From the NCBI GenBank assembly GCA_000503875.1, contig CP006913.1, positions 840,001-872,000 on the forward strand: a stretch of 32,000 nucleotides of DNA, given 5' to 3'. Under the pieces are notes generated by a model that was not told where the DNA came from, did not search any database, and worked only from the letters and a program-made list of their open reading frames with translations. Numbering within the stretch: the first letter of the stretch is position 1; the number at the start of each line of letters is the position of its first letter. Position numbers and translations under genes: made by a program. Below are positions 1 to 32,000 of this stretch, piece by piece. This DNA is from Candidatus Saccharimonadota bacterium (GTDB taxonomy: Bacteria > Patescibacteriota > Gracilibacteria > Absconditabacterales > Absconditicoccaceae).

Positions 1-285
1 TTCATATCACTCCAAGTACGTATTGATGAAAAACATATAGCAATCAAATTTGGATACGGGATTTTCAAGAAAAAGTTTTCGCTCGATGATATCCTATCTG
101 CTAAAACCGTAAAAAATCATCGATATTATGGATGGGGAATCAGAGTATGGTTTTGGCCCAAGATGTGGATTTTCAATGTTTCTGGTTTTGACGCAGTTGA
201 AATAAAAATGAAAAATGGCAAAACATACAGGATAGGTACGGACGAACCCAAAAAATTAGAACAAGCAATTCTGAAGATGGTGTAA
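1..285 (+). CDS. hypothetical protein, C-terminal part (gene starts upstream of window)
   Basis: Frame 1 is open from base 1 to TAA 283-285 (...YYGWGIRVWFWPKMWIFNVSGFDAVEIKMKNGKTYRIGTDEPKKLEQAILKMV*). It is absent from the ORF track because it has no start inside the window. No family recognised. Confidence 0.45.
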   Translation, partial: FISLQVRIDEKHIAIKFGYGIFKKKFSLDDILSAKTVKNHRYYGWGIRVWFWPKMWIFNVSGFDAVEIKMKNGKTYRIGTDEPKKLEQAILKMV

Positions 286-348
286 TTTTCTTTTGTAAAA
301 AGAAGCAAAATAGATACATTAAGATTGATTTATTCACTAACGAATAGG

Positions 349-888
349 ATGAATAGAATTCAAAAATCAAAAGAATTTGCAGAAGAATGTTTAAAAGACA
401 TAGATTCGGCACATGGGATAAAACATGCTGAGACTACTGCAAACTTTGCTAAAATTGTTTCTGAAAAAGAAAATATCAATACAGAATTATGTATTATTAC
501 AGCACTTCTTCACGACATTGGAAGAAGCAAAACATGGAAACAAGAAACAATTGAAGACAATCATGGAGTTGATGGTGCAAAAAAAGCAAAAGATTTTCTT
601 TTTTCATTAGAATTATCCAATGAAGAGGTTGATATGATTTGCGAAGCAATATCCCAACATTGTTTTCCAAACATTCAAACAAATCAAATTTCAAAAATAT
701 TGCGAGATTCAGATAAATTAAATTCATTTTCAAAAGAAATGAAGTTGGAATATATCAAATATTGGAAGGAAAAAGGATGGGATGATGAAAAAATTACTGA
801 ACAAATCAAAAAAGAAAGAGAATTTTATTTTAAGACATTTTACACGAAAACCGCACAAAAGATAGCAAAAGAGAATTTTACAGTATAA
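349..888 (+). CDS. HD-domain metal-dependent phosphohydrolase
   Basis: Track ORF 325-888; the first ATG is at 349. Motifs HGIKH...ITALLHDIGR (H...HD) are typical of the HD superfamily. No in-frame TGA. Stop is TAA. Confidence 0.7.
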   Translation: MNRIQKSKEFAEECLKDIDSAHGIKHAETTANFAKIVSEKENINTELCIITALLHDIGRSKTWKQETIEDNHGVDGAKKAKDFLFSLELSNEEVDMICEAISQHCFPNIQTNQISKILRDSDKLNSFSKEMKLEYIKYWKEKGWDDEKITEQIKKEREFYFKTFYTKTAQKIAKENFTV

Positions 889-990
889 AAAATAGAAATG
901 GCCACGTAAATAAGAAATCTATTTTTTTCAAAACACCTTGTTTTCCAGCCACAAAACACTATCAAGAACATAACACTTAAAACATAACAT

Positions 991-1989
991 ATGACTATGT
1001 CCCTCTATCAATCTCACATTCGAAAGACCATTCAAAAAGATATTTACCAAAAGCCTAGCTTTACCCTCCATCTCTTCGGTAAAGACTATTTTTGAACAAT
1101 CAAAACCAAAAAAATCGGACCTATTACCCTCAAACGATATCAGATTCTATGAATTGAATTGCCAAAAGATCATAAAGAAATCAGCAAAGCTATCCAAAAA
1201 ATAAAGTCTGAATTTTGACATCATTGGACAGATATTTTTTTTCAACGAGGTGTGACTACTTCTATCCAAACTTTTGATGTCAAAGACATCGACAACGAAT
1301 TGGCGAGTTCGCTCAGAGATACGAGATTAAGTCTTCGTACTCACTTCAAAGAAGACTATCATCTTATCCATTCATTTAGAGAAAATCTGCCAGAAAGTAA
1401 TATTATTATTGATATTACAAAAACCAATGAAGAATTACTCCGTGAAATGAACAAATCATCCAGAGTTCGTGTCAGAAAATGAATAGAAAATGGGATAACT
1501 TTTAGAACACTCCAAGAACACGAATATCAAAAGTTTTATAACAAACGACAAACAACAGCAGACAAAAAATGATTTAACACCATATCAGAAAACCAATATA
1601 CCAAACTAATAAAAGAGCTGATACAGACCAAAACAGGAAATGTAGTAATTACCGAAAAAGATGGTGAAATCTTGGCAGGAAGTATAGTTATTTATGACGA
1701 CAAAAATATGGTGTGACTCTATGGATTTGCTGACAGAACACATAATACAATAGGGGGACAACAATATTTGAAATTTAAAACCTTTGAACGAGCGAGAGAA
1801 CAAGGCTTTACAACCTTTGACCTCATGGGCGGCGCTCCTACAGGATTTCCTGAACATGAATTAACAAGCGTCAGTGCTTTCAAAGAATCTATAGGGGGTA
1901 AAAAAATAGAATATACAGGAAATTTCGATATCATCCTCAATCCTCGACTCTACAAAATTTTCAAACGACTATTCACTTTAAAAAAATAA
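991..1989 (+). CDS. FemAB-family peptidoglycan bridge-formation (aminoacyltransferase) protein
   Basis: One frame is open from ATG 991 to TAA 1987-1989 if the 6 in-frame TGAs (1093, 1150, 1216, 1480, 1570, 1714) are read as sense. It joins track ORFs 1252-1482 and 1768-1989. The C-terminal segment ...LYGFADRTHNTIGGQQYLKFKTFERAREQGFTTFDLMGG... resembles the FemAB/GNAT-like fold. Confidence 0.6.
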
Positions 1990-2005
1990 TAATAAAAATA
2001 GCCCT

Positions 2006-4513: not shown

Positions 4514-4568
4514 TTAGGAATTACCTATAAACTAACCGATACCTATTGCTTTATTTTTTTACAGCATC

Positions 4569-5033: not shown

Positions 5034-5035
5034 AC

Positions 5036-6115
5036 ATGTACGACATTATTATTATTTGAGGATGAGCCGCTGGTCTTTTTTGTGCAGGATATCTGCCAAG
5101 AAACACTAAAAAACTCATCTTAGAAAAAACAGATAAACTTTGAACAAAGGTTCTTCTTTCCGGTTGAGGAAGATGTAATTTTTCCAATGCAAATATATAT
5201 CCAATAAACGATTATTTTGGACAAAACAAAAAAGCTTTACCTAGTCTTTTCCACAAGTTTGGAGCAAATGAAATGAAAGAGTTTTTAGAAAACAATGGAA
5301 TAGCTATTCAAGAAGAAGATAATGGAAGATTAATTCTCAAAAGCGGAAAAGCTGAAGATCTAAACAAGTTGCTTATCAACAAAGCAACAGAAAATAATAC
5401 AGAAATAAAGCTCAATCAAGAGATCATCAATGTTTCAAAAAAGGAAGATATATTTATCATAAAAACAAATGAAGAAATAATTGAAACAAAAAATCTTGTT
5501 ATTGCAACAGGATGAAAATCTTTTCCTCAAATAGGAGCTACTGATTTTGCTCTTCAAATTGCACAACAATTTGGATTAGAAACAACAGATGTTATGCCAG
5601 GATTATGTGGAGTAGAAACCAATGAAGATTTTTCAAGTCTCACATGAAATAGCCTAAAAGCTTCCATAACACTTAATCACAATAACAAACTTATTTTCCA
5701 ACAAAACGGAGATATGTTATTTACCCATAGATGACTATCTTGACCTGCAATTTTCAATTTAGCCAATGCTTTAGGCGAATATAAAATACAAAAAAAAATC
5801 TGAATTAATAATTTTGATAATTTTTCCATAACAATAATATTCAACCCAACTACGGCAATCAAAAAAATCACGAACCATTTCCATGGACAACAAATAGCCA
5901 ATTTTACGATTAAATCACTAAGACCTCGAGAAGAAGCAAAAATAATGGTCGGCGGAGTCCATATGAAAGAAATAAACCCAACAATGGAAAGTAAAAAGAC
6001 CGCCTGACTCTATTTCATAGGTGAGGCGCTGGATATCACATGAAAGACATGAGGCTACAACCTCCAACGATGCCGGACCAGCGCCTATGCCTGCGCCCAA
6101 AGCTTCAAAAACTAA
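5036..6115 (+). CDS. HI0933/YhiN-family FAD-dependent flavoprotein (BaiN-like)
   Basis: ATG 5036 to TAA 6113-6115. The Rossmann motif DIIIIGGGAAG has TGA at 5057 and 5063. Family signatures SGGGRCN (TGA 5165), FTHRGLSGPA and GEALDITGKTGGYNLQ have their glycines encoded by TGA. Includes track ORF 5273-5515. Confidence 0.85.
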
Positions 6116-6139
6116 ATATATTGCTTTTTGAGAGAAAAT

Positions 6140-6604
6140 ATGTATAGATACAAAAACTTAAAACAAAACTCTATGTACAAAGAAAGAACGGATCTTACGT
6201 ATTCGTATATAAAAGCCGAAAACGGCATGGAAAATGCAGAAGAAATTCTTCGTAGACTTCAAGAAGCTGGTTTCAAAATAATAGGACAAAAATTGTTCCG
6301 TTATACAGAAACTACAGCCAAAGATTTATACGGAGAACATGAAGGTAAGCATTTCTATGAAAGATTAATGACTTTTACCTGTTCAGCCGATGTAATAGCA
6401 TTGGTTTTACAAAAAGATAATGCTGTAGAAGCCTGGCGAGACTTTATTGGCGATACTAAAAAGCCAGCTGAAGGGACAATTCGTTATCTATTCCAAATCC
6501 CTAATGATGGAGAAAAAAATGTTGTCCACGGGACAGATAAACCTGAAAGAGTAAGGGAAGAGGCGTTAACACCTTTCCCAGAACTTGCTTATCTCTGGGA
6601 ATAA
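6140..6604 (+). CDS. ndk: nucleoside diphosphate kinase-like protein
   Basis: Track ORF 6128-6604. ATGs lie at 6140 and 6173, and the start choice is uncertain. The N-terminal ...ERT...IK... segment and the active-site-like NVVHGTD match the NDK pattern NxxHGSD. Confidence 0.65.
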   Translation: MYRYKNLKQNSMYKERTDLTYSYIKAENGMENAEEILRRLQEAGFKIIGQKLFRYTETTAKDLYGEHEGKHFYERLMTFTCSADVIALVLQKDNAVEAWRDFIGDTKKPAEGTIRYLFQIPNDGEKNVVHGTDKPERVREEALTPFPELAYLWE

Positions 6605-6624
6605 GAAAATAATACAACAAAAAA

Positions 6625-6652
6625 GGTGCTGCGATTCCGCGACACCTTTTTT
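6625..6652. terminator. intrinsic terminator between convergent ndk and trpS operons
   Basis: GGTGCTGCG-ATTC-CGCGACACC imperfect hairpin (6625-6646), flanked by an A-run upstream and a T-run (6647-6652) downstream. It could work in both directions. Confidence 0.6.
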
Positions 6653-6665
6653 CAAATATATTTTT

Positions 6666-6857
6666 TTATATTTCTTCATCAACAATTTCTCCTTTCACTG
6701 CATGCTTCACTGCTTCATCAAATGCATCCATAAGATCTGGATCATCTTCCAATCATTCTTCTTTTAATATATTTTTAATCTGGGCTATTTTAAAATCAGT
6801 TTCATTCCATTCCTGAGCATCCATAACCGTAAGGTTTATATCTTGTTCTTGCGTCAT
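6666..6857 (-). CDS. small acidic hypothetical protein (63 aa)
   Basis: ATG 6857-6855 to TAA 6668-6666 with one in-frame TGA (6755-6753): MTQEQDINLTVMDAQEWNETDFKIAQIKNILKEEGLEDDPDLMDAFDEAVKHAVKGEIVDEEI*. Missing from the ORF track because the TGA splits it below the length cutoff. Lies 8 nt downstream of trpS on the same strand. Confidence 0.5.
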
Positions 6858-6865
6858 TTTTTATA

Positions 6866-7849
6866 TTACAAAGTAAATCAAACCTTTTTATAAACTTCTG
6901 CCAATTTTTTATTTGCTAATTCATTCACATACACTGCGTTTTTCTTCATCAAGTCTATAATTTCTTGATCACTAATTTGTGCATAACGATCTTGAATAGG
7001 TTTCAAAAATGCCATAATTTTTTCATATAAATAATCTTTTGCTTCTTTATAACTCAATCCTCCAGCTTGATATTTAGCTCTCAAGGCAGCATCTTCTTCA
7101 GGGGTTAAAAATAATTTACAGATTTTGTAGACATTACATTGATCAGGATCTTTAGGTTCTTCTACTGTTTTCGCATCCGTAGCAATCTGTTTTACTCTCT
7201 TAAGAACTTGTTTTTCATCATCCAAAAGTCAGATATAATTGTTGTATGATTTGGACATTTTGCGTCCATCTACTCCCAAAATTGTTCCAACTTCAGGTTT
7301 GATATATGGTTCAGGAAGTTTAAATGTTTCACCAAAAACATTATTAAATCTTTGAGCTATATCTCTCGCATACTCTACATGTTGTTTTTGATCTTGTCCA
7401 ACAGGCACCATATCTGCATCATAGAGCAAAATATCAGCAGCCATCAAAATAGGATAGGTAAAAACTCCTACACTAATTTCTTTTGATTTTCCCTTGTCTA
7501 AAGCTTCTTTATATGAATGCATACGTTCCATAAATCCCATATGGGTGATACATCCTAGCACCCAACTCAATTGAGCATGAGCGGGAACATCAGCAGGATT
7601 ATAGATAACAAACTTTTTGAGATCTACACCACAGGCCATATATATTTTCAATACATTCAGACTATTATCATGGATAGCTTTGCCATCATGCAAACCTGTC
7701 AATCCATGCATTATTGCCAAAAACAAAAATATTTCAGCATCAGGATATTGCGCAGAAAGTTCCATCATAGGCTTCACTGCTCCAAAATAATTTCCCAAAT
7801 GGATTTGATTATCAGTAGGTTTAATTCACGTAAGAATCCTTTTTGTCAT
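6866..7849 (-). CDS. trpS: tryptophanyl-tRNA synthetase
   Basis: ATG 7849 to TAA 6868-6866. Joins track ORFs 7229-7798 and 6878-7225 across TGAs at 7828-7826, 7231-7229 and 6880-6878. Class I motifs ...TGIKPTDNQIHLGNY... and GRKMSKS are present, and the C-terminal region is typical of TrpRS. Confidence 0.9.
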
Positions 7850-8116: not shown

Positions 8117-9925
8117 ATGACAAAAAAATTTCTTTTTGCTACTGCAATAACGCTAGTAACATTATGAATAATGTACAATAGTGTAAATGCTGAAGCGCAA
8201 ATTATCATAGATCCTATTACCAAAACCATCACTATTACAGGGATCAATCTTTCTACAGGAACTCAAACAACTGGAACTCAAACAACAGGCACTACTCAAA
8301 CCTGAATCACTCAAACAGGAACAACTATAAAAACAGGAACTGTTACTACAACAACTGTTCAAACAACATGAACAGAATTTGAACGTGCTCTTTCATGGAT
8401 GTATGCAAATTGACTAACCAAATACAATAAACCAACAGACTATAGAATGTATGATGAATTAACTAGGGAAGAAGCCGCAAAAATGATAGCTCAAGCATAT
8501 ATCGTTCTTTGATATGGACAAGAACAAAAAAACTCTGCTTGTGCATTTAGCGATGCAGGAGAATTCAATCCAGAACTTACATGATTTATCAAACAAGTAT
8601 GTGGACGATGAGTAATAAAAGGTGCAAACGGGAAATATATGCCAACCAAAAAGCTTACTAGACCTGAAGCTATGGCTATTTTGGTCAGAATGTTTGAAGG
8701 ACAAACATCTTTTGAAGCCAAAGATCCTCGATGGTCAGAATATTACATCAAAGGAAAAGCTCTCGGTCTGACAACACTCAATACAAGTACATTTGAAAAA
8801 GAAATTTCAAGATATGAAATAGCGTTATATATTTACAGACTACAAACTATCGCAAACGACGTAAATCTCAAGTTACAATCACAACTCAAACTTCAAAATC
8901 TTACAGGCGTAGTTCAAACAACGGGAACAATAACAAATACAGTACCTGAAGAATCATCAGAGCTCGCTCAAAAATTTGCAGCAATAGCAAATTCTATTAG
9001 TGTAGAAAAAGATCCAGAACTGCAAGAAGCTATTAGATGGATGCACGACAATGGACTGACAAGCTTTTTAACCATAGGTGAATATAAACCTTTTGAAGTT
9101 CTTACGAGAGAACAATCAGCCAAAATATTTGATGTTTTTGCAAAAATATTTGATTTTTCTCAAGACAAACTCACAAGTACATTACCTACAGAATGCCAGT
9201 TCAAAGACCTTGCAAAAGCAGATCAAACATTAACTACTCATATCCAAAATGTATGTAAAATGGAAATTCTCAAAGGAGGAAACCAACTTTTTGATCCCAA
9301 AAATACATTAACAAAATGACAGTTTATCACTGCGCTTATTAGGTTAGTAGAAGGGAAAAAACTTGATGAAAGCAAAAATCCTCGATGGACAGCTTACTAC
9401 CAAAATGCATTGGATATGGGAATTGTAGGACCAGCTGATGCTATCACATTCGATAGTCCAATTACTAGATACGAAGTAGCATTATTTCTTTATAGATTTA
9501 GAGTAAAATTTCAGTTAATCAATAATCTTAACAACAACTCATTAGAAAATATGATTTTAAACACAATTCCTTGAAGCATCAAAACGGGAGATACTATTTT
9601 ATCTGGAGAAATCCCAGAAGCCAAAGAAGCAGATATTTTTATAGATACCAATTTGATTCAAAATGCTAATTTCGAATTGGGATATATAGAAATATTTTCT
9701 ACAAAATATAAAGTAATTAAAACATCAACAGAAACTTATTTTAGCAAAAATTTTGTACGATACGGAGATATTTATGATATCAGTACAGACAAAAAAATTG
9801 GAACAATCAATTTTATCGTAAGCAATAGAGCGGTTCTCGAAGGAACAGCAAGAATAAATACAAATACATATACTATATCACAGGTAGCAAATACTACTGC
9901 ATATTATCACATCAAGAAAAATTAA
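8117..9925 (+). CDS. secreted repeat protein with SLH-like (S-layer homology-type) modules
   Basis: ATG 8117 to TAA 9923-9925 in one frame across about 10 TGAs, joining track ORFs 8639-9319 and 9653-9925. N-terminal signal-like MTKKFLFATAITLVTLGIMYNSVNA, then a Thr/Gly-rich linker (TGTQTTGTQTTGTTQTG...). Recurring modules such as FSDAGEFNPELTGFIKQVCGRGVIKG...TRPEAMAILVRMF and FKDL...ILKGG...LTKGQFITALIRLV resemble SLH repeats. Confidence 0.5.
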
Positions 9926-17153: not shown

Positions 17154-18800
17154 ATGAAAAATATGAAGAATATTATTAATCAAATCAAAAGTAATTGGAA
17201 ATCTGGATTAGTTGTAGCGATTGTTTCTATTCCTCTTTCAATTTCCTTAGCGATAGCCAGTTGAGCAACCCCACTTCAAGGATTAATCAGTGCCATATGG
17301 GCAATGGGATTGGCAGCACTATTTGCTTCAAGCCAGTACAATGTTTTTTGACCAGCAGGAGCTTTATCATGAATATTGTTGGCATTCACACTAACACATT
17401 GAGCTACGTATTTACCAATTATAGCAATCATAAGCTGATTACTATTGTTAGTTGCTTATTTCTCAAAATCCATCAGATATATTACATTAATTCCCGCTGC
17501 ATGACTTCAATGATTTCTTTTTGCCGTTGGATTGACCATTTTAGTTTCCCAAATTCCTGGCGGATTGGGTATCTCGATACCAACACATGAAAAAATATAT
17601 CTTAATATCATAGAAATTTTTAACAACCTATCAAGTATTAATCGAATAAGTTTTGGGGTATGTTTATCATGATTATGATTTCTGTTTTTTGCAAAAAAGA
17701 AGCGACCAAAAGTTCCTGGAGCAATTATATTATCACTACTAGGTATTGGAATCGGATTTGGGGTACATCAATGATGGTTTCCCAATATAGCATTACTAAG
17801 TAACAAATATCCAAATCTATCGTTCTGATTACGAGATTTTTCATATATACAAAACACAAAAGCACTTCTCTCCAATACAAATGCAATAACAGACATAGTA
17901 AAAATATCAGCAGTGATAGCAATTGTAACCATATTAGAGACAATAATTTCAGGAAAAATAGGTGAAAAAATGACTAAAGTCTGATTCAATAAAGATAAGG
18001 AAATTTTTGGTAATGCTATTGCAAATATCTGATCGGGATTAATGGGTGGAATTCCCGCTACAGCAGTATTAGTGAGAACGGCATTAAATATCAAATCATG
18101 AGCAACTTCCAAATATTCCCAATGATTAGCTGCCTTAACGGCTTTGGTAATATCAGCATTATTATTCAATAACGTTTTCACGCTGTTACCTATGAGTATT
18201 ATTGCAGCCATCCTGATTTTCATAGCAATTGGGATTATGGATTTTTCTATACTCAAGAAATTTTATACGTTTGAAAAAACATCCTTTTATCTGATTATTA
18301 TCACAATAGTTTGTTCAATAGTATTCGATACCATTACATGAATTTTGGTAGGAACATCTCTTACGTTATTGATTTTTATAGCAAGAACCACCTACACAGA
18401 ACCTCGTGTTACAATCTTTAGGAATAAACAATTCTTTACAAAAACAGATCTAACAAAATATATTACCCAACAACAATCTTGAGATATAATTATTATGAAA
18501 CTTGCAGGAGAGTTGAATTATCTCAATATAGATTATCAATTTACCGAGATGAAAAAAATAGTTTCATGAAGTGTTATGATTTTTTCTCTAGATCAACTTT
18601 CTGATATAGATATAGATGGATTAGAATATTTTGAAGATATCGTACATCACCTAGAAGGAAAAAAAGTAACAATGTATATCACCTGATGGAATAAATGAAT
18701 CAAAGAAATGTGTTTCAGAGTGCCTTCGCTAAAAAAGCTTAATGATAATGGACTTATCTACGATTCAAAATCAGAATTATTACAACATTTAGGAATCTAA
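17154..18800 (+). CDS. SulP-family anion transporter with C-terminal STAS domain
   Basis: ATG 17154 to TAA 18798-18800 in one frame with more than 20 in-frame TGAs. Includes track ORF 18144-18341; track ORFs 17195-17590(+) and 17768-18256(-) are off-frame or antisense. Motifs SIPLSISLAIASGATPLQGL, VFGPAGALS and GGIPATAVLVRTALN, then a STAS-like tail (IIIMKLAGELNYLN...). Confidence 0.8.
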
Positions 18801-18839
18801 AAAAAGCCGGCAGTTTGCCGGCTTTTTTCCTAAGAAAAA
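18800..18839. terminator. bidirectional intrinsic terminator; copy 2 of the 40-nt direct repeat
   Basis: AAAAAAGCCGGC-AGTTT-GCCGGCTTTTTT followed by CCTAAGAAAAA. The CTA at 18830-18832 is the TAG stop of tex on the minus strand. Confidence 0.7.
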
Positions 18840-21127
18840 CTAATATTTCCTTTCATACTTGTTTCTGGGATATTATCATCATCTTTTCCTCCTTTTGATC
18901 ATCCGATATCACGTTTTTTTTCTTCTGAAATTGCTTGTCTAACCTGTTGAGTACCTGCATCTGTTCCATCTTTCATAGTCAATGACACCTTTTCTCTTTC
19001 TGCATCTATATCAAGCACCTTCACTTTCACTCTTTGACCAACACTTACCACTTCTATCGGATTACTCACATAATGATTTGCCATCTGTGATTTATGAACC
19101 AGTCCATCACTGTGCAATCCAATATCTACAAACGCACCAAAATCAGTCACATTTCTTACAATTCCTTCCAAATCCATACCAATTTTGAGATCTTTTAATT
19201 CCAAAATATCAGATTTAAAACAAGGAACTTCCAGTTCATCACGAGGATCCAATCCTGGTCTTTGCAATTCTTTGATAACATCGATCATAGTTTCATATCC
19301 AATATCATATTTTTGAGCCCATTCTTTGATTTGATGATCAGCATATTTTTCTACTGCCATAGGCAAGGTTAATGCCTTCTTTTTGATTCCAAGTTCTGTT
19401 TCAAGAAAAGCATATACTTGTTTGTGGATTTCCGGGTGGATACCTGTTGCATCCAAAACCTCTTTTCCTCACTTGATTCTCAAGAATCCAATTGCCTGTT
19501 CATACGCTTTTGGACCAAGCCCTTTCACTTTCTTGAGTTGCGCTTTTGATTCGAAAGATCAGTTTTCATCTCTATACGTAACTACATTCTTCGCTACCGC
19601 TTCGCTAAGCCCTGCAATATATTGCAACAAAGTATAACTCGCTGTATTTACATCAACTCCCACGGCATTCACGACATCTTCTACCTTTTCATCTAGCTTT
19701 TCTTTGAGATATTTTTGGTCTACATCATGTTGATATTGCCCAACTCCAATCGCCTTAGGATCGATTTTTGTCAATTCCGCCAATGGATCTTGTACTCTAT
19801 GTGCAATACTAATTGCTCCTCTAATCGTTACATCCAAATCAGGATATTCATCTTGAGCAAGTTTAGACGCTGAATACACAGAAGCTCCAGATTCAGAAGT
19901 TATCATATATTTCACATCCAATTTATATTTTTTGATGAAATCATTTACCACCTTCTCAGATTCTCTCGAAGCCGTACCATTTCCGATCACTATTAAATCA
20001 ATTTTATAATCAGACACTAATTTCAATAAGGTCTGCCAACTTTCTTCAACTTTATTTTGTGGTTCGGTTGGATAAATAACGGTTTTTGCGAGGAATTTTC
20101 CTGTCTTATCGACAACTGCTAGCTTACATCATGTTCTAAACGCAGGATCAAATCCGAGCACGGTCATACCTTTAATCGGAGGCGTTAATAAGAGGTTCTT
20201 TAGATTTTCTCCAAACACTTTGATCGCAGCTTCATCAGATCGTCTTTTTTTGTCTGATCTGAGTTCTCTTTCCAATGATGGTAATAACAATCTATCCAAT
20301 CCATCTCTAATTGCTTCTTCCAAATACGAAACAGAGCTTTTTGCTTGTTTTGGCACAAAGAAACCAACTGCAGATTCCCATATTTTGAGGTCAGAAAGCG
20401 TTAATTTCAAAGAGAGTTGCTTTTCTTCTTCTGCTCTTGTCACCGCAAGGTACGCATAAGACGGCATTTCTCATAATTTTTTAGAATATTGTTTGTAAAT
20501 TCTATAGACTCCGTTGTCTTCAAAGGTCTTTGTTGCCTTGGTTTCCAAAACAGCATGCGTATCTTCCCATGTTTTAATATCATCTCTCAAATCAGCATGA
20601 TCAGATACATCTTCAGCCACAATATCCTTAGCTCCTTGAATAGCTTCTTTGATATCTTTCACAGAAGTCTTGGCGTCACCTGTATCTTTGATAAACTTCT
20701 CTGCTTCCGCTTCGAACTCCTCTTTGGTCAAATCGGCCTTCGCCAAAATCTTCGCTAACGGCTCAAGTCATTTTGCCTTGGCGATAGTTGCCTTAGTATT
20801 CTTCTTTTCTTTAAATGGACGATAAAGATCCTCAACTCTGGCCAAGGTCTCAGCTTCCATTATTTGTTTTCTAAGTTCATCAGTCATCAAGCCTTTTTCA
20901 TCGATCAAACGAATTACATCCGCCTTTCTCGCCTCCAAATTTTTGGTATAGGTATAAATATCATTAAAATCTCTAAGCTGCTCATCCGTCGCTCCCTTTG
21001 TCATTTCCTTACGATATCTGGCAATAAACGGTACCGTATTTCCCTCATTCAAAAGATCTATAATCGTCGTAATCACACCTCTTTCCATTCCCGTTTTGGA
21101 AACTATCAACCCGATCAAATCAGCCAT
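18830..21127 (-). CDS. tex: Tex-like transcription accessory protein (YqgF/HhH/S1 domains)
   Basis: ATG 21127 to TAG 18832-18830 (766 codons, one frame). Joins five track ORFs (20768-21127, 20471-20746, 20129-20467, 19559-20026, 18899-19456) across TGAs. N-terminal VPFIARYRKE, IVIGNGTASRE (YqgF-like), GLGPKAYEQAIGFLRI (HhH), and S1 domain GIVRNVTDFGAFVDIGLHSDGLVHKSQM. Confidence 0.9.
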
Positions 21128-21215
21128 TTTCTCTACTATATAAGGTAAAAATATTATTCAAAACACAACAAATCTGACTTTATCAAAACACGTTCAGATT
21201 GCAATTCAAAAATTT

Positions 21216-21243
21216 TTGACAAAAAATCGATTCTGGATATAAT
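21216..21243 (+). promoter_or_regulatory. near-consensus sigma70 promoter
   Basis: TTGACA (21216-21221), 16-nt spacer, TATAAT (21238-21243), about 50 nt upstream of ATG 21294. Confidence 0.6.
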
Positions 21244-21293
21244 TGGAATGGCATAACTAATTGTCAGGTTTTATTTTATATGACATAAAAAGT

Positions 21294-21560
21294 ATGATAG
21301 CTATCCAAGAAGAAATAATGACTGAGAATGGAGTAGAAGAACAAGAATCTAAAAAATTATCAAACAATTATGAAGATGAATTATTACAATCAATATTAAG
21401 AGACAACAGCGATGAATTTGAGCTACAAACAACTGAATCAAAAACTAATTTCAAGAAAGAATCAGAATATTTTAATGAAGAACAAACTGATTACAAAAAA
21501 ACTCGCAAACAAAGAAAGCAAAAGACTGATCAAAATCTAGCCGAGGTTTTCAAATATTAA
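21294..21560 (+). CDS. small acidic hypothetical protein (88 aa)
   Basis: Track ORF 21261-21560 (TTG start). The first ATG is 21294, downstream of the predicted promoter. Glu/Lys-rich, no family recognised. Stop is TAA. Confidence 0.45.
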   Translation: MIAIQEEIMTENGVEEQESKKLSNNYEDELLQSILRDNSDEFELQTTESKTNFKKESEYFNEEQTDYKKTRKQRKQKTDQNLAEVFKY

Positions 21561-21569
21561 ATTTTTTAT

Positions 21570-21960
21570 AAAAAATCCCCAGCGCATGCGCTGGGGCTTT
21601 AGTTAACATGATACATCATTCCCTTCCATATATGGGCGAGCCACATAAGGGGCGCCTCTTTCATCGAAGAAGGGATTTTTTTGGGGGCCCCAATGCACGG
21701 GGCAAATGTACCTCTACACAGAGGAATAGCCAAGACGGTTTGGCATCCAATTTTTTGTGCAGGGGTGTTTTTTTCGGAAATAAATTCTTCTTTTCGGGGT
21801 TTTTCCTTCTTAAGGAGATCCTCGAATCAAAATAATTAAATGCATCATACCGGTTGATTAAATAATTTTTTATGGTATATTTAAACTAAACCTGGACTCC
21901 GAACACGGAGCAAAACTTGATGTTTTATCATATACGCGAACCAATAATTTTTTATTGGCA
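21570..21960 (-). ncRNA. candidate structured non-coding RNA of unassigned class (~390 nt)
   Basis: A GC-rich island in an AT-rich genome with no credible ORF. Minus-strand promoter at 21994-21967 and terminator at 21596-21570. Hairpins in plus coordinates: 21620-21626/21669-21675, 21687-21703, 21711-21724, 21729-21744, 21897-21910, 21941-21958. An 11-bp long-range helix pairs 21608-21618 with 21918-21931. Confidence 0.45.
21577..21596. terminator. perfect 20-nt GC-rich palindrome, intrinsic terminator (best on the minus strand)
   Basis: CCCCAGCGCA/TGCGCTGGGG. On the minus strand it is followed by A+TTTTTT (21576-21570). On the plus strand it is followed only by CTTT. Confidence 0.7.
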
Positions 21961-21966
21961 GAGAAT

Positions 21967-21994
21967 AATATAATTATTTAGATACAAAAGTCAA
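21967..21994 (-). promoter_or_regulatory. sigma70-like promoter driving the candidate ncRNA
   Basis: The minus strand reads ATTGACTTTTGTA...TATATTAT: -35 TTGACT = 21994-21989, 16-nt spacer, -10 TATATT = 21972-21967. It is the same extended box as the promoter at 15926-15953. Confidence 0.45.
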
Positions 21995-22122
21995 TACAAT
22001 ATTAAACATTATTATATAATACAAAAGAGTCATTAAGAATCTGATTTTCGTTTGTTTTTTTTTCTGTATTTTGTATAGTAAGTTATATCAAAAGACATTA
22101 TTTACCATTTACTGTAACAAAA

Positions 22123-22854
22123 ATTCACTACCGCACCATTATTATTTCAGACGTTCATTTGGGTACTCCTGACACAAAATATCAGGAAGTATTTGATTTT
22201 CTGACAACAAACACTTGTGATAATCTAATCCTCAACTGAGATATTATCGATGGACGATATTTAAGATATTTTCCAACACGACCAACAGAACAAAGAAAAG
22301 TTATTGAATATATTCTCAATCTTTGAGAAGAGAACAAGGTAAAAATAACCTACCTCAAAGGAAATCACGAAAGATTACGAAAAAATCTTCTTCCTATAAA
22401 AATAAACAATATCGTTTTTGCTGATGAAATAATTTATCAATCAGGAAACAAAAAATATCTGATTTGTCATGGACAACAATTTGATAAAAAAATCTGCTGT
22501 ATCATGGGTATAGAGACCATTTCTTTTCTAGGATGATTGTTTCTTTTTCGACTTAACAGAAAATTCAATAACCGAAGAATAAACCATGGATATACATATT
22601 TTTCTCTCGTTTGAAAAATCAAACGATTAGCTAAAAAAATAGCTCTATGAGGAGAAAAGTCATTCGATGAAAAAATCAAAAATCTTCTTCACAAAAAACA
22701 ATGCGATGGACTCATTTGTGGTCATTTGCACAAATCTGCAGATAGATATATAGGAAAATATCACTACCTCAACTCTGGAGATCGAATAGAATCCCTTACC
22801 GCATTAGTTGAGACAGAAAATCACGAATGGAAAATTATAAAATATGGAAAATAA
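22123..22854 (+). CDS. LpxH-like calcineurin-type metallophosphoesterase (UDP-2,3-diacylglucosamine hydrolase family fold)
   Basis: Frame 1 is open from 22006 to TAA 22852-22854 across about 7 TGAs. Motifs IISDVHLG, LNGDIIDG (Gly is TGA 22237), GNHE and GHLH. The start is unresolved: there is no ATG, GTG or TTG upstream of the DVH motif, so ATT 22123 is used provisionally. Confidence 0.6.
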
Positions 22855-24300
<1,446 letters not shown>

Positions 24301-24314: not shown

Positions 24315-25211
24315 CTAAAATATCGTTGCTACTTTAGGATCTCTTCCTTGTACCAACTGATCATTTCATCATCATTTTAAACCAAGGTTTTGAACTATAG
24401 TTTTGGCAGATCCTGTATTCATAAACAAAGCAAAATTTCACTCTTTTGTATAGATCAAAAAATTCTGATTTTCAAATATTTTTCTAACTTGTCCCAACGC
24501 AATTTTAAAATCAATATCGCTAGGTATTTCCAACACAATATTTAAGTCTGAATTATTGGTTTTATTTGGCAATCCGTGCAACATATCAGCAACTAATTTA
24601 TTTTGTAATTGTCCAAAAGAATTTTGTAAAGCTTCATGTTCTTTGATTAATTTTTCTGCTTTATCAACGACTTGTTTTTGACCAACGCTAAATTTTTGTG
24701 ACAAATCATCCAAAATTTGATCTTTTTCTTGTACATATTCAAACACTTTTGGTCCTGTCAAAGCCACAATTCTTTTGATACCAGAAGCTACAGATTCTTG
24801 AGCAAGAATCACAAAACATCAGATATCTTTGGTATTGCTTACATGAGTTCATCAGCAAAGTTCAGTAGAAACATTCTGATCAACTTTGACCACTCTCACC
24901 ATATCTCCATATTTATCTTCGAAAAATGCTTTTGCTCAAAGTTTAATAGCTTCATCATACGAAGTTTCAAAGTTTTCTACAGGCAAAGCCGCATAAATCA
25001 AATGATTGATTGTTTTCTGAATTTCCAAAAGTTCCTCACCAGTTAAAGCTCTATCCGCAGCAAAATCCAATCTCAAATAATCTTCATCTACAAATGATCC
25101 TGCTTGTTTTGTTTCAGAAAAAATAGTACCCAACTGAGCGTGCAACAGATGCGCAGCCGTATGAGCTCTCATTTTCGCATATCTTTGAGCAATATCAACA
25201 ATAAGTTTCAT
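24315..25211 (-). CDS. alaX: free-standing alanyl-tRNA editing protein (AlaX-L type: AlaRS editing domain plus shortened C-Ala/DHHA1-like tail)
   Basis: ATG 25211 to TAG 24317-24315 (299 codons). Joins track ORFs 24936-25211 and 24438-24812. HxxxH motif MRAHTAAHLLH. The CGGTH motif has both Gly as TGA (24854-24849). The C-terminal GLKGGGND has three consecutive TGAs (24374-24366). No AlaRS catalytic domain lies upstream. Confidence 0.8.
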
Positions 25212-25444: not shown

Positions 25445-25487
25445 TTTTATATATAAAGATTTAAAATCAGTAATTACAAACTAAGTT

Positions 25488-25559
25488 TGGCCCGACCAGG
25501 AGTTGAACCTGGGTTTCAATCTTCGCAGGATTGAGTCCTATCCACTGAACGACCGGACC
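25488..25559 (-). tRNA. tRNA-Arg (anticodon GCG)
   Basis: The reverse complement folds as a cloverleaf: GGTCCGG TC GTTC AGTGGATA GGAC T CAATC CTGCGAA GATTG AAAC CCAGG TTCAACT CCTGG TCGGGCC A. Acceptor stem is 7 bp (two G-U pairs), T-loop is TTCAACT, anticodon loop is CU-GCG-AA. CCA is not encoded. Confidence 0.85.
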
Positions 25560-25651
25560 ATCAAAAAGTAACTGTAAGTATTTCCCATCAAAACTCAAAC
25601 CAAAAACGCCATTAAATTACTATACATATGAAATATTTGTTTATAAATTTA

Positions 25652-25680: not shown

Positions 25681-25684
25681 AAAA

Positions 25685-26563: not shown

Positions 26564-27286
26564 ATGCACGAAAACCGAGGAACTAAGCTTATAAATTTCT
26601 TTTTCCCAAAAACCTGTATTAAATGTAAAAAGACAGGTGAATATTTGTGTAATGATTGCAAAAAAACACTCACTCCACATCCTGAAATCTGTCCTTACTG
26701 CCACAGAATTTCTGCCAATTATCAAACTTGCTTGGACTGCAAAATAACCCCATACAACGCTCTTGAAGGCGTGATAATACCTTTTTCTTATTCAGATACT
26801 ATCAAACAACTTATCACAAAATTCAAATATAAACACCAAAAAGATTTGGTCGATTTTCTCGCTGATAGACTTATCGTTATTTTACAAACCAATGAGAAAT
26901 TAAACAAACTCATAGAAGAAAATAATCAGATTCTTATAGCCTACATTCCAACTCATCGATATAGAAAACATTTCGTCAAAGGCTACAATCAATCACAAGT
27001 TTTAGCCGAAAATATGAGTCAAAAAATCCAGATTCCAATTATTGAATTATTACAAAAACCACAAGCTAGTAAGGCACAAGCCAAATTACAAAGAACCCAA
27101 AGATTGGTTAATCTTCAAGGAAAATTTATTTTCAATTCAAATATTCAGTTACAGGGGCACGAAACAATACTTCTTATAGACGATGTAACAACCACCAATG
27201 CGACGTTAAATGAAGCCGCACGCACTATCAAAGCACAATATCCATACACAAAAATACGAGGATTAGTAATTGCGAGACATAATTAA
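26564..27286 (+). CDS. comFC: ComF-family phosphoribosyltransferase-domain protein
   Basis: Track ORF 26504-27286. ATG 26504 lies inside the upstream terminator hairpin, so ATG 26564 is preferred. The N-terminal zinc-ribbon pattern is CxxC...CxxC...CPYC...CxxC. The PRTase loop is ILLIDDVTTTNATL. No in-frame TGA. Confidence 0.75.
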   Translation: MHENRGTKLINFFFPKTCIKCKKTGEYLCNDCKKTLTPHPEICPYCHRISANYQTCLDCKITPYNALEGVIIPFSYSDTIKQLITKFKYKHQKDLVDFLADRLIVILQTNEKLNKLIEENNQILIAYIPTHRYRKHFVKGYNQSQVLAENMSQKIQIPIIELLQKPQASKAQAKLQRTQRLVNLQGKFIFNSNIQLQGHETILLIDDVTTTNATLNEAARTIKAQYPYTKIRGLVIARHN

Positions 27287-27443
27287 CAAAACCAATCGGC
27301 GCAATTAGATAATCACAACATTTTTTCACAAAAAGGCAAGTCGAAACACCTGCTCTTTTTTTTTATTTTAGGTTTTTTAAGCGTTCTCGGTTATACTTAG
27401 AGTAAGTCGTGACAAAAACTTTTAAACAATATAAAATACTAAA

Positions 27444-29060
27444 ATGACAGATCCAATTATTCAAAATCAAGCACAAGGAGGAACAAATCCAATGCCAGTA
27501 CAGGCAGAACCTCAAATAGATTTTGATCTCAATTTACCAGCAAACGAAGAAACTCCTACAAATGAAGAGCCTATAATTTCGTTAGATTTTGATGATATTC
27601 AAAAAACTCAAATAGATAATACACAAGAAACTAACGTAAATGATAGTTCTTTTGTTGAAGAAGTAAAAGTAGAGGCTGTTCCAGTTGTTGAAACTCCTGT
27701 TGTCGAAGCTACTATTGTCGAAACTCCAGCTGTTGAAACTCCAGTTGTTGAAGCTCCAGTTATCGAAACCCCAGTTATCGAAGTCAAAGAAGACAATCGA
27801 TTAGATCAAGAAGACGCTCTTGTTGAAGAAAGTAAAAAAGATACTGAAGCAACTCCCGTTATTGAAACTAAAAAAGAGCCAGAAATCAAAGAAGAATCTT
27901 TAAATATGTTTAGCGAAGAAATCGTTGAAACACCAATAGTTGAAGCTCCAGTGGTTGAAGCTCCAGTTATCGAAGAAGCCCCAGTTGTTGAACAACCAAT
28001 CGAACAAACAATTATACAACAAGAAATCGAAAAACCAGTACCAGGAGAACCACAACAAAATTTTCCACCAAGTACAAATTTACAACAAGACCAAGCAATA
28101 ATCCAACAAATTCAAGCAAGTGCTGGAAAACCAAGCGAACCAGTAGTATCTACTCCAGTAGCACCAACTGCAACAGAAGTAAATCTAGATGATCTTTTGA
28201 ATACTCCTGCACCACAAAATCAAGCAACAACACAACCTGTTATTGCAGCACCAATGCCACAAATGCCAGCATTTACTGGAATTCACGGATATTCATTACC
28301 ACCAATTGCGACACAAATAGGTCAACAAATCAAACAACCACTCAATAAAAAAATTCTCATCAATTTCTGAGTAGGAATTATCGCATTAGTTGTTGGATGA
28401 TTTATGTTTAAAACAATGTATCCTCTAGAATATCAAAAAATAGTAGGAAACACTCCAGAAACTGGTATCGAAAGTGAATTAACAAATCCAATAGAAACAA
28501 CTGGAGAATGAACAGATGTTGAACCAACCGATGGATTATTCGAAAATCCAGCTTTAACAAATTATCATGCTGCTGCCGAAGACAATTCTGGTAGTAATGG
28601 TGATTTTAATGCATTTGAAGATATTGAACAAACCATGACTGATGATAATGCAAAAATCAAAGAACAACTCCAAAAGTATGTTGATGAAGGCAAGAAATAT
28701 CTCGTTATTGGAAAAAGAACAAATGATAAAAATATTACTAAATATAGTCTATTTTTGTATAAAAAAGCAACGGCATTGTTGTTAGACATTGAAAATGGAA
28801 CTCAAATCAGTACTGATGAACTAGATACACAATTAGCTGATTTTGAAACCTATTTACAAAAACTAACCGGTACTGGATCTAATGACGAAATTCTTCCAAC
28901 ACAACCAATTACCCCAACGCCAGAAGAATTTTTCTGATCAGAAAATAGTTGAACAACACAAGAAGAAACAGTGACTCCAGCCGAAATCCCTACAACAACA
29001 GAAAGCTGATCAACCACACAAGAGACAGAAACTCCAGCTGAAAACTTATCAGGAAACTAA
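27444..29060 (+). CDS. acidic Pro/Val/Glu repeat protein with one central transmembrane helix (538 aa)
   Basis: ATG 27444 to TAA 29058-29060 in one frame across 6 TGAs, joining track ORFs 27444-28370 and 28635-28937. Pentapeptide repeats (T/A)PV(V/I)E. TM segment ILINFGVGIIALVVGGFMF. Thr/Glu-rich tail. Confidence 0.6.
27678..27782 (+). repeat. seven tandem 15-nt coding repeats (VPVVE/TPVVE/ATIVE/TPAVE/TPVVE/APVIE/TPVIE); a second shorter block lies at 27930-27992
   Basis: Direct reading of the period-15 units gaa-act-cca-gtt-gtt and variants, in frame within the 27444 CDS. Confidence 0.8.
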
Positions 29061-29061
29061 A

Positions 29062-29952
29062 ATTCAATCACACAGTCTAACGAACCTAATTGACAAATAT
29101 ACGTATTATCTCACCTACGAAAAAAACGTCAGTAAAAAAACATTGGAAAATTATAGCCTACGACTCAACAGACTCGTAGATTTTCTTGGAGATATTACTA
29201 TTGAAGAATTAAACCGTATTCAGGTTTTAGATTTTAGAATGGAACTCAGCAGACAAGGACTTGCAACAAAAACAATTAATTATCATATTGTTGCTATCCG
29301 CGCATTTCTCAAATTCATTTTAAAAAATGATATAGACTGTATGAGTCCAGATAAACTTGAACTCGCCAAAACTCCTCCTAGAGAAGTTAATTATCTCGAT
29401 GAAGATGAAATTTTGAAAATTTTGGAAGCACCAGGAAAATTGGCAAACAAAAATGTTGAACAACAGACAAGAGATATAGCAATTTTGTATATGCTTTATG
29501 GAACAGGACTGAGAGTTACTGAACTTATCAAGCTCAAAAAAACAGACATCAAAATTGATTCCAATCAGTTTTCTGTTATCGGAAAATGATCCAAACTTAG
29601 ATCAATTTTTGCTACCAAAATCGCCAGAGAAAAATTACAAAATTATCTCAAACAGAGAAAAGATAATTCCGAATATCTCTTTACAACTGTTTCTGTAAAT
29701 GGTTTGGGAGAATATCTCAGTAGAAATAGTATCGAAGATATTGTAAGAAAATATGCAAAATTAGCGGGAATTACCAAAAGAGTTACCCCACATACGCTCA
29801 GACATAGCTTTGCAACTTCTCTTATCAAAAAAGGCGCCGACATCAGAGCAGTGCAAACACTTCTTGGTCACGCTTCTATTACCACCACACAAATCTATAC
29901 TCACGTCGATGATAGACATCTCAAACAAGTCCATGATTTGCTTGAATCTTAA
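29062..29952 (+). CDS. tyrosine recombinase, XerC/XerD family
   Basis: Track ORFs 29143-29589 and 29704-29952 share a frame and join across TGA 29590 (the GKG motif). Motifs GTGLRVTEL (Arg), HTLRHSFAT (HxxR) and [15 protein letters not shown] (His/Tyr). The homologous core-binding helix [23 protein letters not shown] lies upstream of TTG 29143. ATT 29062 is the provisional start, so the start is uncertain. Confidence 0.8.
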
Positions 29953-30042
29953 ATCTGAATAAATAACATTCCAGTCAGTCATTACGACCCCAAGCGAAAC
30001 AAAGGGGAAATTCACTATTTACACTATAAATTTATAAAAAAA

Positions 30043-30660
30043 ATGAACCAAGAAGAACTCCTCAAAAAGTATGAAGACATTATCAAAGAAGAAATTAATA
30101 TCAAAGAAATTACAGCTTTGGACAGCAGTATCAAAGTTAAAAAAATATTTAAACCCCTAGGAAATCAACTTTCTGCAAAATTTGGAAAAGATACAGGAAA
30201 AATTATTCAATTCGGAAAAATGGGAAATTTGAAACAAGGAGAAAACAATCAGATTGTTGTTTTTGATGATGCTTGAAACGAACGAACACTTGAAAATTCG
30301 GATTATGAAATTGCTTACGAAGGATTAGAATGAGACAACATCGCGATCGATAACGAAATCATCGCAAAGCTCGATTTAGAAATTACTCCAGATCTTGCCA
30401 GAGAATGAGTCGCTCGCGAAATATCTAGATTTCTCAATCAAATGAGAAAAGAAGCGAAATATAATGTTGACGATAAGGTACATCTTGCCTACCAAACCGA
30501 TAGTAAATATTTGATGGAAGTAATGTCAGAATTCTGAGAATTTTTACAAGATGAAGCGCTTGTTAAAGAAATATCTCACAACACTAGAAAACCAGCAGGT
30601 GATATTGTCGCAGAATTCACTTCTGACGAACAAATGATGATGATCGCTTTGAAAAGATAG
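30043..30660 (+). CDS. free-standing protein resembling the C-terminal extension of type-2 isoleucyl-tRNA synthetase (DUF5915-like)
   Basis: ATG 30043 to TAG 30658-30660 across 4 TGAs, extending track ORF 30043-30276. ...KPLGNQLSAKFGKDTGKI... and ...LDLEITPDLAREGVAREISRFLNQMRKEAKYNVDDKVHLAY... match the IleRS C-terminal pattern L.EL..EG.ARE..R..Q..RK.AG..V.DRI. Confidence 0.55.
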
Positions 30661-30869
30661 GATGATTACTTGAAAAGATAATTAAATTGAGCAATAAAAA
30701 GAACAAACAAAAAAAGAAAATATCAACAAATCAGCATCATCATGAGCCAAAACAGGAATTCAATTATAATGAGACGCTAATTCTAAATAAAATATTGCTT
30801 TGATATTTGATGTATGTTGTTTGTTTTTTATTGCGAAACAATGACGACTTTATGATCTTAAATTAAATA

Positions 30870-31310
30870 ATGGCCCAACAAACTTGTCTAGATTATGCAC
30901 TTCATTATATTTCTCGCTATCCAAAAACCGAAAGCGAACTCAAAATTAAACTTATGCAAAAAGGTTATTTTTCCAACGATATCGAAAAAGCAATGAATAT
31001 TCTCAAAGAAAAAAAATTTCTTAGCGATGAATTGTTTGTAGAAAGTTATGTAAGAAGCGAACTTATGAACAAAGGTAAACCGCCTATCGCAATTATCAAA
31101 AAGCTTCAAGAAAAATGAGCAGATAAACACCTTATTATGAAAATCATCAAACAAAATGAAGAAGACGTAAATAGCGGCGTAAGAGAAAGAATCAAAAAAG
31201 AAATCGCAAGCTACAAAAAAAGAGGCGAAGAATGATTCGATATTATTCAAAAACTTATGCGCAAAGGATACAGATTATGAGACATCAAAGATGTTATCAA
31301 CAACAAATAG
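30870..31310 (+). CDS. recX: RecX-family regulatory protein
   Basis: ATG 30870 to TAG 31308-31310 across 3 TGAs, extending track ORF 30870-31118. ...[28 protein letters not shown]...[14 protein letters not shown]...GK..I...L..KG... matches the three-helix RecX repeats. Confidence 0.7.
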
Positions 31311-31342
31311 ATTCTGATTTTATTTATTATAGACAAGCTATC

Positions 31343-32000
31343 ATGAAAGCTACTCCTATCAGCAAATTGTATGCAGATCACAAGTCATTACTCAATACAT
31401 CAATCAATCTCAATGGATGGGTAAGAACAATCAGAGATTCCAAAACATTTGGATTTATTGAACTTAATGATGGATCATACCTCAAAAATATACAAATCGT
31501 TTTTGAAGATAAATTAGATAATTTCGATGCAATTTGCCACCTTGGAGTAGGAAGCGCAATTTCTGTAGAAGGAACTCTCGTTGCTTCACAAGGAGGAAAA
31601 CAAGTTTTTGAAATTCAAGCAAGCAAAGTAACTATCGTAGGAACTTCTCTTCCAGAATATCCTCTTCAAAAGAAAAGACATGGATTCGAATACCTCAGAG
31701 AAATTGCTCATCTTAGACCAAGATCAAATACCTTTTCTGCCGTGTTTAGAGTAAGAAATTTACTTTCATTCGCGATTCATAAATTCTTCCAAGAACAAGG
31801 ATTTATGCGAACACATACACCAATTCTTACAGGAAGCGACTGTGAAGGCGCTGGAGAAATGTTTAGAGTATCTACTCTTGATATGATGAATCCTCCAAAA
31901 ACTGAAGACGGGAAAATAGATTATTCCAAGGATTTCTTTGGGAAAGAAGCATCTTTGACAGTAAGCTGACAACTAAACGGAGAAACATTTGCTTGTGCTT
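31343..32000 (+). CDS. asnS: asparaginyl-tRNA synthetase, N-terminal part (continues past window end)
   Basis: ATG 31343, in frame with track ORF 31232-31969. OB-fold [66 protein letters not shown] with the Gly encoded by TGA 31967. The frame stays open to base 32000. Confidence 0.85.

Follow-up and report, generated by a model that had tools for sequence, protein, structure and literature searches.

A reading of UGA as glycine was first reported in bacteria of candidate division SR1 by Campbell et al. 2013 (PMC3619370), and was described for the closed SR1 genome RAAC1, from acetate-stimulated aquifer sediment and with a G+C content of 0.31, by Kantor et al. 2013 (PMC3812714); in RAAC1 an additional AlaRS is present in fragments, and IleRS is split (PMC3812714). 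NCBI translation table 25 corresponds to this glycine reading. For the Absconditabacterales, a code with two further changes has been predicted by Codetta, in which CGA and CGG specify tryptophan in addition to UGA specifying glycine (Shulgina & Eddy 2021, eLife, PMC8629427); the same code is restated in PMC13092985. The stretch analysed here (hereafter the window, 1..32000, the 32,000 nucleotides of DNA studied, with a G+C content of 32%) very probably comes from the chromosome of an uncultured bacterium of the Absconditabacterales (candidate division SR1, candidate phyla radiation/Patescibacteria) in which UGA is read as glycine, CGA and CGG as tryptophan, and only UAA and UAG as stops. This is an already known code, published as a computational prediction for the Absconditabacterales, and nothing in it is new in kind.

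The window resembles the code described by Shulgina & Eddy in the three reassignments, in lineage, in low G+C content, in the dominance of AGA among the arginine codons, and in that CGU and CGC appear to be read by a tRNA-Arg with anticodon GCG rather than ACG. It differs in codon usage: in every species analysed by those authors CGA accounted for fewer than 37 of each 10,000 codons in aligned Pfam domains, below or near the value for UGG (PMC8629427), while in the window CGA reaches about 61 and TGG 37 per 10,000 codons when all genes are counted, a denominator not strictly comparable to theirs. In addition, an exception seen here in the gene for nucleoside diphosphate kinase (NDK) is absent from their description (PMC8629427). 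Table 25 shares with the window the glycine reading of UGA, UAA and UAG as sole stops, the SR1 lineage and a sediment source, but keeps CGA and CGG as arginine codons, which the window does not fit. Two stand-alone genes, one AlaX-like (24315-25211) and one encoding a DUF5915 domain (30043-30660), fit the fragmented AlaRS and the split IleRS of RAAC1. Table 4, used by Mycoplasmatales and several insect endosymbionts, is alike in that UGA has a sense meaning in a genome that is small and AT-rich, and is the table that gene callers choose for such contigs; it is unlike the present case in that the amino acid is glycine rather than tryptophan which, according to the literature, would involve an added tRNA-Gly(UCA) and not a tRNA-Trp(UCA). 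Finally, Anaerococcus and uncultivated Bacilli of the GTDB order RFN20 also have an arginine codon of the CGN box (N, any base) taken by tryptophan in a low-G+C background (PMC8629427; the RFN20 clade is named Onthovivens in PMC13092985). In those groups, however, only CGG has changed and CGA stays arginine via tRNA-Arg(ICG), while here both CGA and CGG have changed and no tRNA with anticodon ACG appears to be used.

The window matches part of contig DPJE01000005.1 (GCA_003543185.1) base for base, and likewise k127_338944, from a sediment metagenome (run SRR944699, ENA assembly ERZ936476); these two independent assemblies of the contig agree fully over the 20,540 bases compared (L001, L002). 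Flanking sequence was read as well, 9.65 kb on the upstream side (L001) and 5.3 kb on the downstream side (L004), so that the analysis covered 47 kb of the contig. Under the standard code, open reading frames (ORFs) of at least 100 amino acids appear as 44 pieces that cover 62% of the window. These pieces join in frame once TAA and TAG are taken as the only stops, which leaves 29 genes and 87.7% of the window as coding sequence. The gene fragmentation had initially been attributed to standard-code ORF calling; it is indeed such an artefact, and the NCBI record of the contig carries fragmented calls of the same kind. Each of the 28 complete genes terminates with TAA (19) or TAG (9), as had been claimed. 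The in-frame codon counts were 146 for TGA, 57 for CGA, 2 for CGG and 35 for TGG; TGA occurred inside 25 of the 29 genes, always in frame, and made up ∼24% of the glycine codons. When Pfam was run on proteins in which TGA, CGA and CGG had been masked as X, near-full-length single matches spanned many TGAs (HI0933_like, IMPDH, Sulfate_transp, tRNA-synt_1b, Tex domains, RuvB and Phage_integrase). The genes considered individually are the following:

5036..6115, plus strand: HI0933-like flavoprotein, with 12 TGA codons, including those at 5057 and 5063 (GxGxxG) and 5165 (SGGGRCN)
6866..7849, minus strand: TrpRS, with 3 TGA codons, including 7826-7828 (T-G-I-K-P-T)
17154..18800, plus strand: SulP-family transporter, with 20 TGA and 3 CGA codons; Pfam Sulfate_transp at residues 16-384, plus STAS
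18830..21127, minus strand: Tex, with 6 TGA codons and one CGA at 20240-20242
22159..22854, plus strand: LpxH-like metallophosphoesterase, with a TGA at 22237 (GD motif) and CGA at 22255, 22279, 22783, 22378, 22549, 22573 and 22624
22855..24297, minus strand: IMPDH-family gene, with 9 TGA codons
24315..25211, minus strand: AlaX-like stand-alone protein (AlaRS editing domain plus C-terminal GGG motif), 298 amino acids, with 8 TGA codons
29143..29952, plus strand: XerC/D-type recombinase, with a TGA at 29587-29589 (G-K-G-S)
30043..30660, plus strand: DUF5915-only protein (IleRS C-terminal domain), 205 amino acids, stand-alone
31277..32000, plus strand: 5′ part of AsnRS, with a TGA at 31967 (TVSGQL) and a CGA at 31808 ('GFM-x-THTP')

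The masked proteins were aligned to solved structures and to distant standard-code homologues, and the residue under each TGA was read. Glycine was found in 29 of the 43 pooled columns and tryptophan in none (binomial P about 9e-24, for a background glycine frequency of 7%). By gene, glycine occupied 11 of 11 aligned columns in the HI0933-like protein (with the closest of four PDB homologues), 7 of 9 in the IMPDH-family protein (with PDB 7oy9), 6 of 12 in SulP (with a distant PDB homologue, tryptophan in none of the 12), 3 of 5 in Tex (with Tex of P. aeruginosa), the single column in AsnRS (with PDB 6pqh) and 1 of 5 in the LpxH-like protein, this last being the TGA of the GD motif at 22237, where glycine is present in 104 of 104 homologues. 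A codon-level comparison was made with 75 loci containing Tex relatives, fetched from GTDB species genomes. At 122 in-window TGA sites, the codons of SR1 orthologues were GGN in 331 cases, TGA in 294, TGG in one and others in 188, and in the conserved glycine columns of eight families GGN was counted 2462 times and TGA 1199 times. Exchange with GGN in relatives was seen at 88 of 156 TGA sites, and exchange with TGG at one. This exchange across up to 75 related genomes, together with the occupancy of glycine columns, makes UGA a synonym of GGN and excludes code 4; the glycine reading proposed in the initial annotation is therefore confirmed.

The individual genes gave the same picture. The HI0933_like profile matched residues 3-355 of the flavoprotein across its 12 TGAs (profile positions 2-243 of 244), tRNA-synt_1b matched residues 4-283 of TrpRS (7-292 of 292) and IMPDH matched residues 13-475 of its gene (2-345 of 345). 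Only TGA or GGN occurred in the three TGA columns of TrpRS in 8 orthologues, and in those of the AlaX-like gene in 7 SR1 orthologues, the latter including the TGATGA at 24849-24854 (minus strand, inside 'ELC-G-G-THV') and the three consecutive TGAs, TGATGATGA, at 24366-24374 (minus strand, inside 'GLK-GGG-ND'). The same was true of eight of the nine TGA columns of the IMPDH-family gene, the ninth (amino acid 331) being AAA in 4 of 4 relatives, and at the AsnRS site relatives had GGN in 19 cases and TGA in 4. Both AlaX-like motifs had been pointed out initially, as had the TGAs at 5057, 5063, 5165, 22237, 31967 and 7826-7828 (minus strand), and each was found in the frame proposed. The TGA assigned to the GKG motif of the XerC/D recombinase exists as well, but occupies 29587-29589, position 29590 being the first base after it. 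Two gene names needed qualifying. The gene taken for AlaRS encodes a stand-alone AlaX-like fragment of 298 amino acids that matched Pfam tRNA_SAD only and has HxxxH and CGGTH; no PDB match was found for it at an E-value of 1e-15 or better. The label IMPDH is in doubt for 22855-24297 (minus strand): its best match among solved structures was the GuaB1-type GMP reductase 7oy9 (426 bits), as opposed to 237 bits or less for any IMP dehydrogenase structure, and judging from these alignments it may be a GMP reductase. The TGA-free genes HD, hyp175 and ComF were considered as a special class, an idea that was rejected: the lack of TGA in each is compatible with chance (P 0.04-0.25), and ComF uses CGA on aromatic columns.

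Turning to the CGN box, CGA is common (57 codons) given how AT-rich the genome is, and TGG is rare (35 codons). If TGG alone specified tryptophan, this residue would amount to 0.37% of the proteins; with CGR (R, purine) added the figure is 1.0%, a normal level. On this count, CGA and CGG provide ∼63% of the tryptophan codons (59 of 94) and TGG the other 35, so that the initial statement that tryptophan positions use TGG is true of only 35 of 94 codons, and CGA is the main tryptophan codon. Alignment to outgroups supports this reading: the 32 pooled columns (31 CGA, 1 CGG) showed tryptophan 20 times, tyrosine 6 times and arginine once (P about 8e-31). For the 13 in-window sites among them, the residues were W in 6, Y in 3, and L, A, G and R in one each. 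In ValRS, whose gene lies on the same contig and 2.6 kb upstream, 17 CGA codons aligned to T. thermophilus ValRS at W in 12 cases, Y in 3, L in one and K in one, and never at R; these columns include DW-ISRQLWWGH-IPAWY. Codon exchange in SR1 orthologues pointed the same way. At 49 in-window CGR sites they had CGR 179 times, TGG 54 times, TAY or TTY (Y, pyrimidine) 29 times and other codons 28 times; AGA, AGG, CGT and CGC were never found at these sites. Conversely, at window TGG sites the relatives had CGA or CGG in 26% of cases. The conserved tryptophan columns of related genomes contained 153 CGR and 91 TGG codons, and the conserved arginine columns 2153 AGR or CGY codons and no CGR. Translated with table 25, the window would have arginine at 59 tryptophan positions in 22 of its 29 genes. 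Table 25 had been proposed initially; its glycine reading of UGA and its two stop codons stood, while CGA and CGG behave as tryptophan and not as arginine codons.

Single positions illustrate this. In the HI0933-like gene, the CGA at 6068 and the CGG at 6074 lie in 'GYNLQ-W-C-W-TS' and correspond to W and W in HI0933 and 9x7q ('GYNLQ-CGA-C-CGG-TS' against 'GYNFQWAWSS'); the CGG is replaced by TGG in orthologue L084, and a further CGA, at 5927, has Y or I opposite it. For the LpxH-like protein, 104 homologues with at most 42% identity were aligned; the columns of the CGAs at 22255, 22279 and 22783 held W in 104 of 104, that of 22549 held W in 54 and R in 37, and that of 22378 held L in 101. A PDB search with this protein found nothing. 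The CGA site of Tex (20240-20242) was CGA in 44, TGG in 21 and CGG in 3 of 69 SR1 orthologues. The CGA of AsnRS at 31808 aligned to Y in 6pqh, and two CGA codons just past the window end to W and W; relatives had TAT or TAC in 19 cases, TGG in 2 and CGA in one at the former site. CGG was also seen at tryptophan columns of Tex, LpxH-like and TIM-barrel orthologues. For the ComF CGA at 27257, a representative-library search gave W 62, Y 13 and F 8; since table-4-translated recoded relatives dominate this search ('KWYNQS' for K-G-YNQS), counts of R and W in the column are confounded, and the aromatic signal is only suggestive.

One tRNA gene was found in the window by ARAGORN and Rfam, and it was also located near Tex in 15 of the fetched related-genome loci:

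25487..25560, minus strand: tRNA-Arg(GCG), predicted by ARAGORN; Rfam tRNA, 52 bits; A20, C35, G36, A73

In candidate phyla radiation bacteria, tRNA-Arg(GCG) reads CGU and CGC (Shulgina & Eddy, PMC8629427), and the tRNA(UCG) and tRNA(CCG) of Absconditabacterales carry Trp-like identity (PMC8629427). Judged by its anticodon, the tRNA-Arg of the window would read CGU and CGC only and leave CGA and CGG to other tRNAs, which fits a split CGN box. Following the literature, UGA would be read by an extra tRNA-Gly(UCA) with release factor 2 absent, and CGA and CGG by tRNA(UCG) and tRNA(CCG) bearing tryptophan identity elements (G73, no A20); these would presumably be charged by the TrpRS of 6866-7849.

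Several observations weigh against this reading of UGA, CGA and CGG. Shulgina & Eddy themselves point out that the tryptophan assignment of CGA and CGG lacks protein-level (mass-spectrometry) support in any SR1 bacterium (PMC8629427). ARAGORN scans of the 47 kb of contig and of ∼80 related loci (∼1.2 Mb) revealed tRNA-Arg(GCG) and unrelated tRNAs only, and none with anticodon UCA, UCG or CCG. For CGG the evidence consists of two in-window codons, one of them aligned to W, plus CGG-TGG exchange in relatives. In the HI0933 gene, the codon at 5729-5731 ('FTH-R-GLSGP') is AGA in the window, AAA in one relative and CGA in five (loci compared L080, L082, L083, L007, L009 and L065), and standard-code homologues have R or F in this column; the column may reflect an easy one-step change from tryptophan to arginine (CGA to AGA), or else point a second time to an arginine-like CGA. 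The most pointed case is NDK, for which five SR1 orthologues were available:

6173..6604, plus strand: NDK, with no TGA among its 9 glycine codons and a single CGA, at 6437-6439
L080, 5001-5432: NDK orthologue
L084, 962-1393: NDK orthologue
L085, 1050-1478: NDK orthologue
L083, 2693-3121: NDK orthologue
L082, 6787-7215: NDK orthologue

The CGA at 6437-6439 falls on an invariant catalytic arginine, as judged from three PDB NDKs with alignments shown and from 15 non-SR1 homologues. We take this position to be R88 of human NME1. In the six SR1 genes it is CGA five times and CGG once, and in one orthologue CGA is also present at a second invariant arginine ('GTIR'), which is CGT in the others. CGA and CGG occur in these six genes only on the two invariant catalytic arginine positions; all 13 of their other tryptophan codons are TGG, and TGA is used at none of 55 glycine codons. 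The TGA share of NDK glycine codons was 0.018, the lowest of 60 SR1 gene families (range 0.10-0.79). In the adjoining HI0933 gene of these contigs, the usage of TGA and CGR is normal. The genes are under purifying selection, with a ratio of nonsynonymous to synonymous substitution rates (dN/dS) of 0.11-0.16. The synonymous divergence between allele groups is about 1.5-1.9, compared with 0.3-0.55 in flanking genes (3-6 times). G+C content, overall and at third codon positions (GC3), is ordinary. A recent foreign origin of NDK was considered and, as a simple explanation, discarded: the gene is syntenic in at least 4 SR1 contigs, its G+C and GC3 are ordinary and its dN/dS is low. The order HI0933, NDK, small ORF, TrpRS was found for at least 4 of the five further orthologues. 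When a metagenome was scanned for additional orthologues from SR1, the only NDKs recovered were distant standard-code ones, with at most 44% identity. There are three possibilities for this exception: tryptophan is tolerated at the position, CGR is partly read as arginine, or the gene has been kept compatible with the standard code. NDK is the sole item here that could bear on the question of whether codon reassignments pass through, or retain, ambiguous decoding. The predicted peptides differ: DNAVEAWWDFIGDTK if residue 89 is tryptophan, and DNAVEAWR plus DFIGDTK, by tryptic cleavage, if it is arginine.

The interval between HI0933 and TrpRS (window 6116-6865; L007, 21128-21849; L065, 17165-17863; L085, 1541-2008) varies among SR1 relatives. 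In the window, L080 and L082 it holds NDK and a conserved ORF of 63 amino acids (window 6666-6857, minus strand), L007 and L065 have a cytidine-deaminase-like gene instead, and L085, and probably L083, have both.

That CGA and CGG are not cleanly reassigned in SR1, being mostly tryptophan with ambiguous or context-dependent insertion of arginine, or that particular genes are kept readable under both codes, is unlikely. It would account for the codons on invariant arginines in all six NDK genes, for the second such CGA in one orthologue with the other 13 tryptophan codons all TGG, and for the complete avoidance of TGA under purifying selection; tRNAs with anticodons UCG and CCG, moreover, bear the main anticodon determinants of ArgRS (C35, G36), and some charging of them by arginine is conceivable. 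Against this, essential proteins have many CGA codons on invariant tryptophans (17 CGA in ValRS), where appreciable insertion of arginine would be very costly; the pattern is confined to one gene family, its six orthologues are not independent samples, and tryptophan at the NDK position is possible. Plain table 25, with CGA and CGG remaining arginine, draws on the same NDK codon and on the AGA/AAA/CGA column of HI0933, and its glycine reading of UGA is fully supported; it is nevertheless very unlikely to be the full code, as outgroup-aligned CGR columns show tryptophan in 20 of 32 and arginine in one, no CGR is found among the 2153 codons of conserved arginine columns, no arginine codon replaces CGR in orthologues at the 49 in-window sites (54 TGG do), and the tryptophan content implied (0.37%) is implausible.

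The two codes in which UGA is not glycine are less probable still. Under code 4, with UGA as tryptophan as in Mycoplasma, the fragmentation would also disappear, and public protein entries of the contig do show W at TGA positions (P0001); the complete lack of tryptophan in the 43 outgroup-aligned TGA columns, 29 of which are glycine, and the exchange of TGA with GGN at 88 sites against one for TGG make this highly improbable. The standard code, with in-frame TGAs as pseudogenes, sequencing errors, selenocysteine or programmed read-through, agrees with the naive ORF track only, and its probability is close to nil: each of the 146 TGAs lies in frame, the genes are intact and have dN/dS values (0.04-0.2) that indicate purifying selection, TGA is used in the same way in 75 independent genomes, the TGA columns hold glycine and not cysteine, and the contig has the same sequence in both independent assemblies for the bases compared. 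The reading with UGA as glycine and CGA and CGG as tryptophan is thus the one retained.

The 75 Tex relatives, 63-93% identical to the protein of the window, belong to genomes with the titles Absconditabacteria, SR1 or Absconditabacterales; the record titles further include Absconditicoccaceae and SR1 oral taxon HOT-345, and one homologue of the LpxH-like protein is named Absconditicoccaceae. The closest relatives share the gene order of most of the window. The names of the relatives and the change of CGA and CGG together place the window in the Absconditabacterales. The group named in the initial annotation, SR1 and Gracilibacteria, was correct, and a narrower placement, Absconditabacterales (SR1), is possible. 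Record titles are an unreliable guide for the SR1 clade: many GTDB-representative SR1 genomes (loci L005-L078) bear the title 'uncultured Candidatus Peribacteria bacterium', and in one case the title is 'Candidatus Gracilibacteria'. The Tex proteins of these genomes are 65-91% identical to that of the window, and TGA is used in them for glycine.

With this reassigned code, standard calling shatters genes, table 4 gives tryptophan for glycine, and table 25 gives arginine for tryptophan. The public records of the contig bear this out. The NCBI gene calls are code-11 fragments (ValRS, for instance, is in four pieces), while the ENA calls are full length; the calls made by Prodigal, ENA and Logan implicitly use code 4, and the ENA and Logan proteins have W at every UGA-glycine and R at every CGA/CGG-tryptophan ('ILNWDIIDGRY' for ILN-G-DIIDG-W-Y). 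None of the existing translations of the contig is correct. Table 25, officially the correct one, mistranslates 59 codons here, many of them for invariant catalytic or structural tryptophans, and homology searches, structure predictions and family profiles made from such entries inherit the errors. The window is a clean case of one stop-to-sense and two sense-to-sense changes in a bacterial code, with CGA now the main tryptophan codon, ahead of UGG, which fits a late stage of codon capture. Its value lies in the annotation, in CGA as the majority tryptophan codon in this lineage, and in the oddity of NDK.

Two further regions deserve mention. The stretch of ∼1 kb that separates the divergent Tex and LpxH-like genes (21128-22158) contains short, unsupported ORFs only, one of which (21261-21560, 99 amino acids) is called by ENA; Rfam gave no match in this region. 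At 8117-9925 (plus strand) a protein of 602 amino acids is encoded, with a signal-peptide-like N-terminus and a Thr/Gly/Gln-rich repeat, for which no Pfam match was found. It contains two copies of a module, each ending in 'K-D/N-P-[CGA]-W-x-x-Y-Y', and in relatives the CGA of these modules is kept or replaced by TGG, giving a conserved WW pair.

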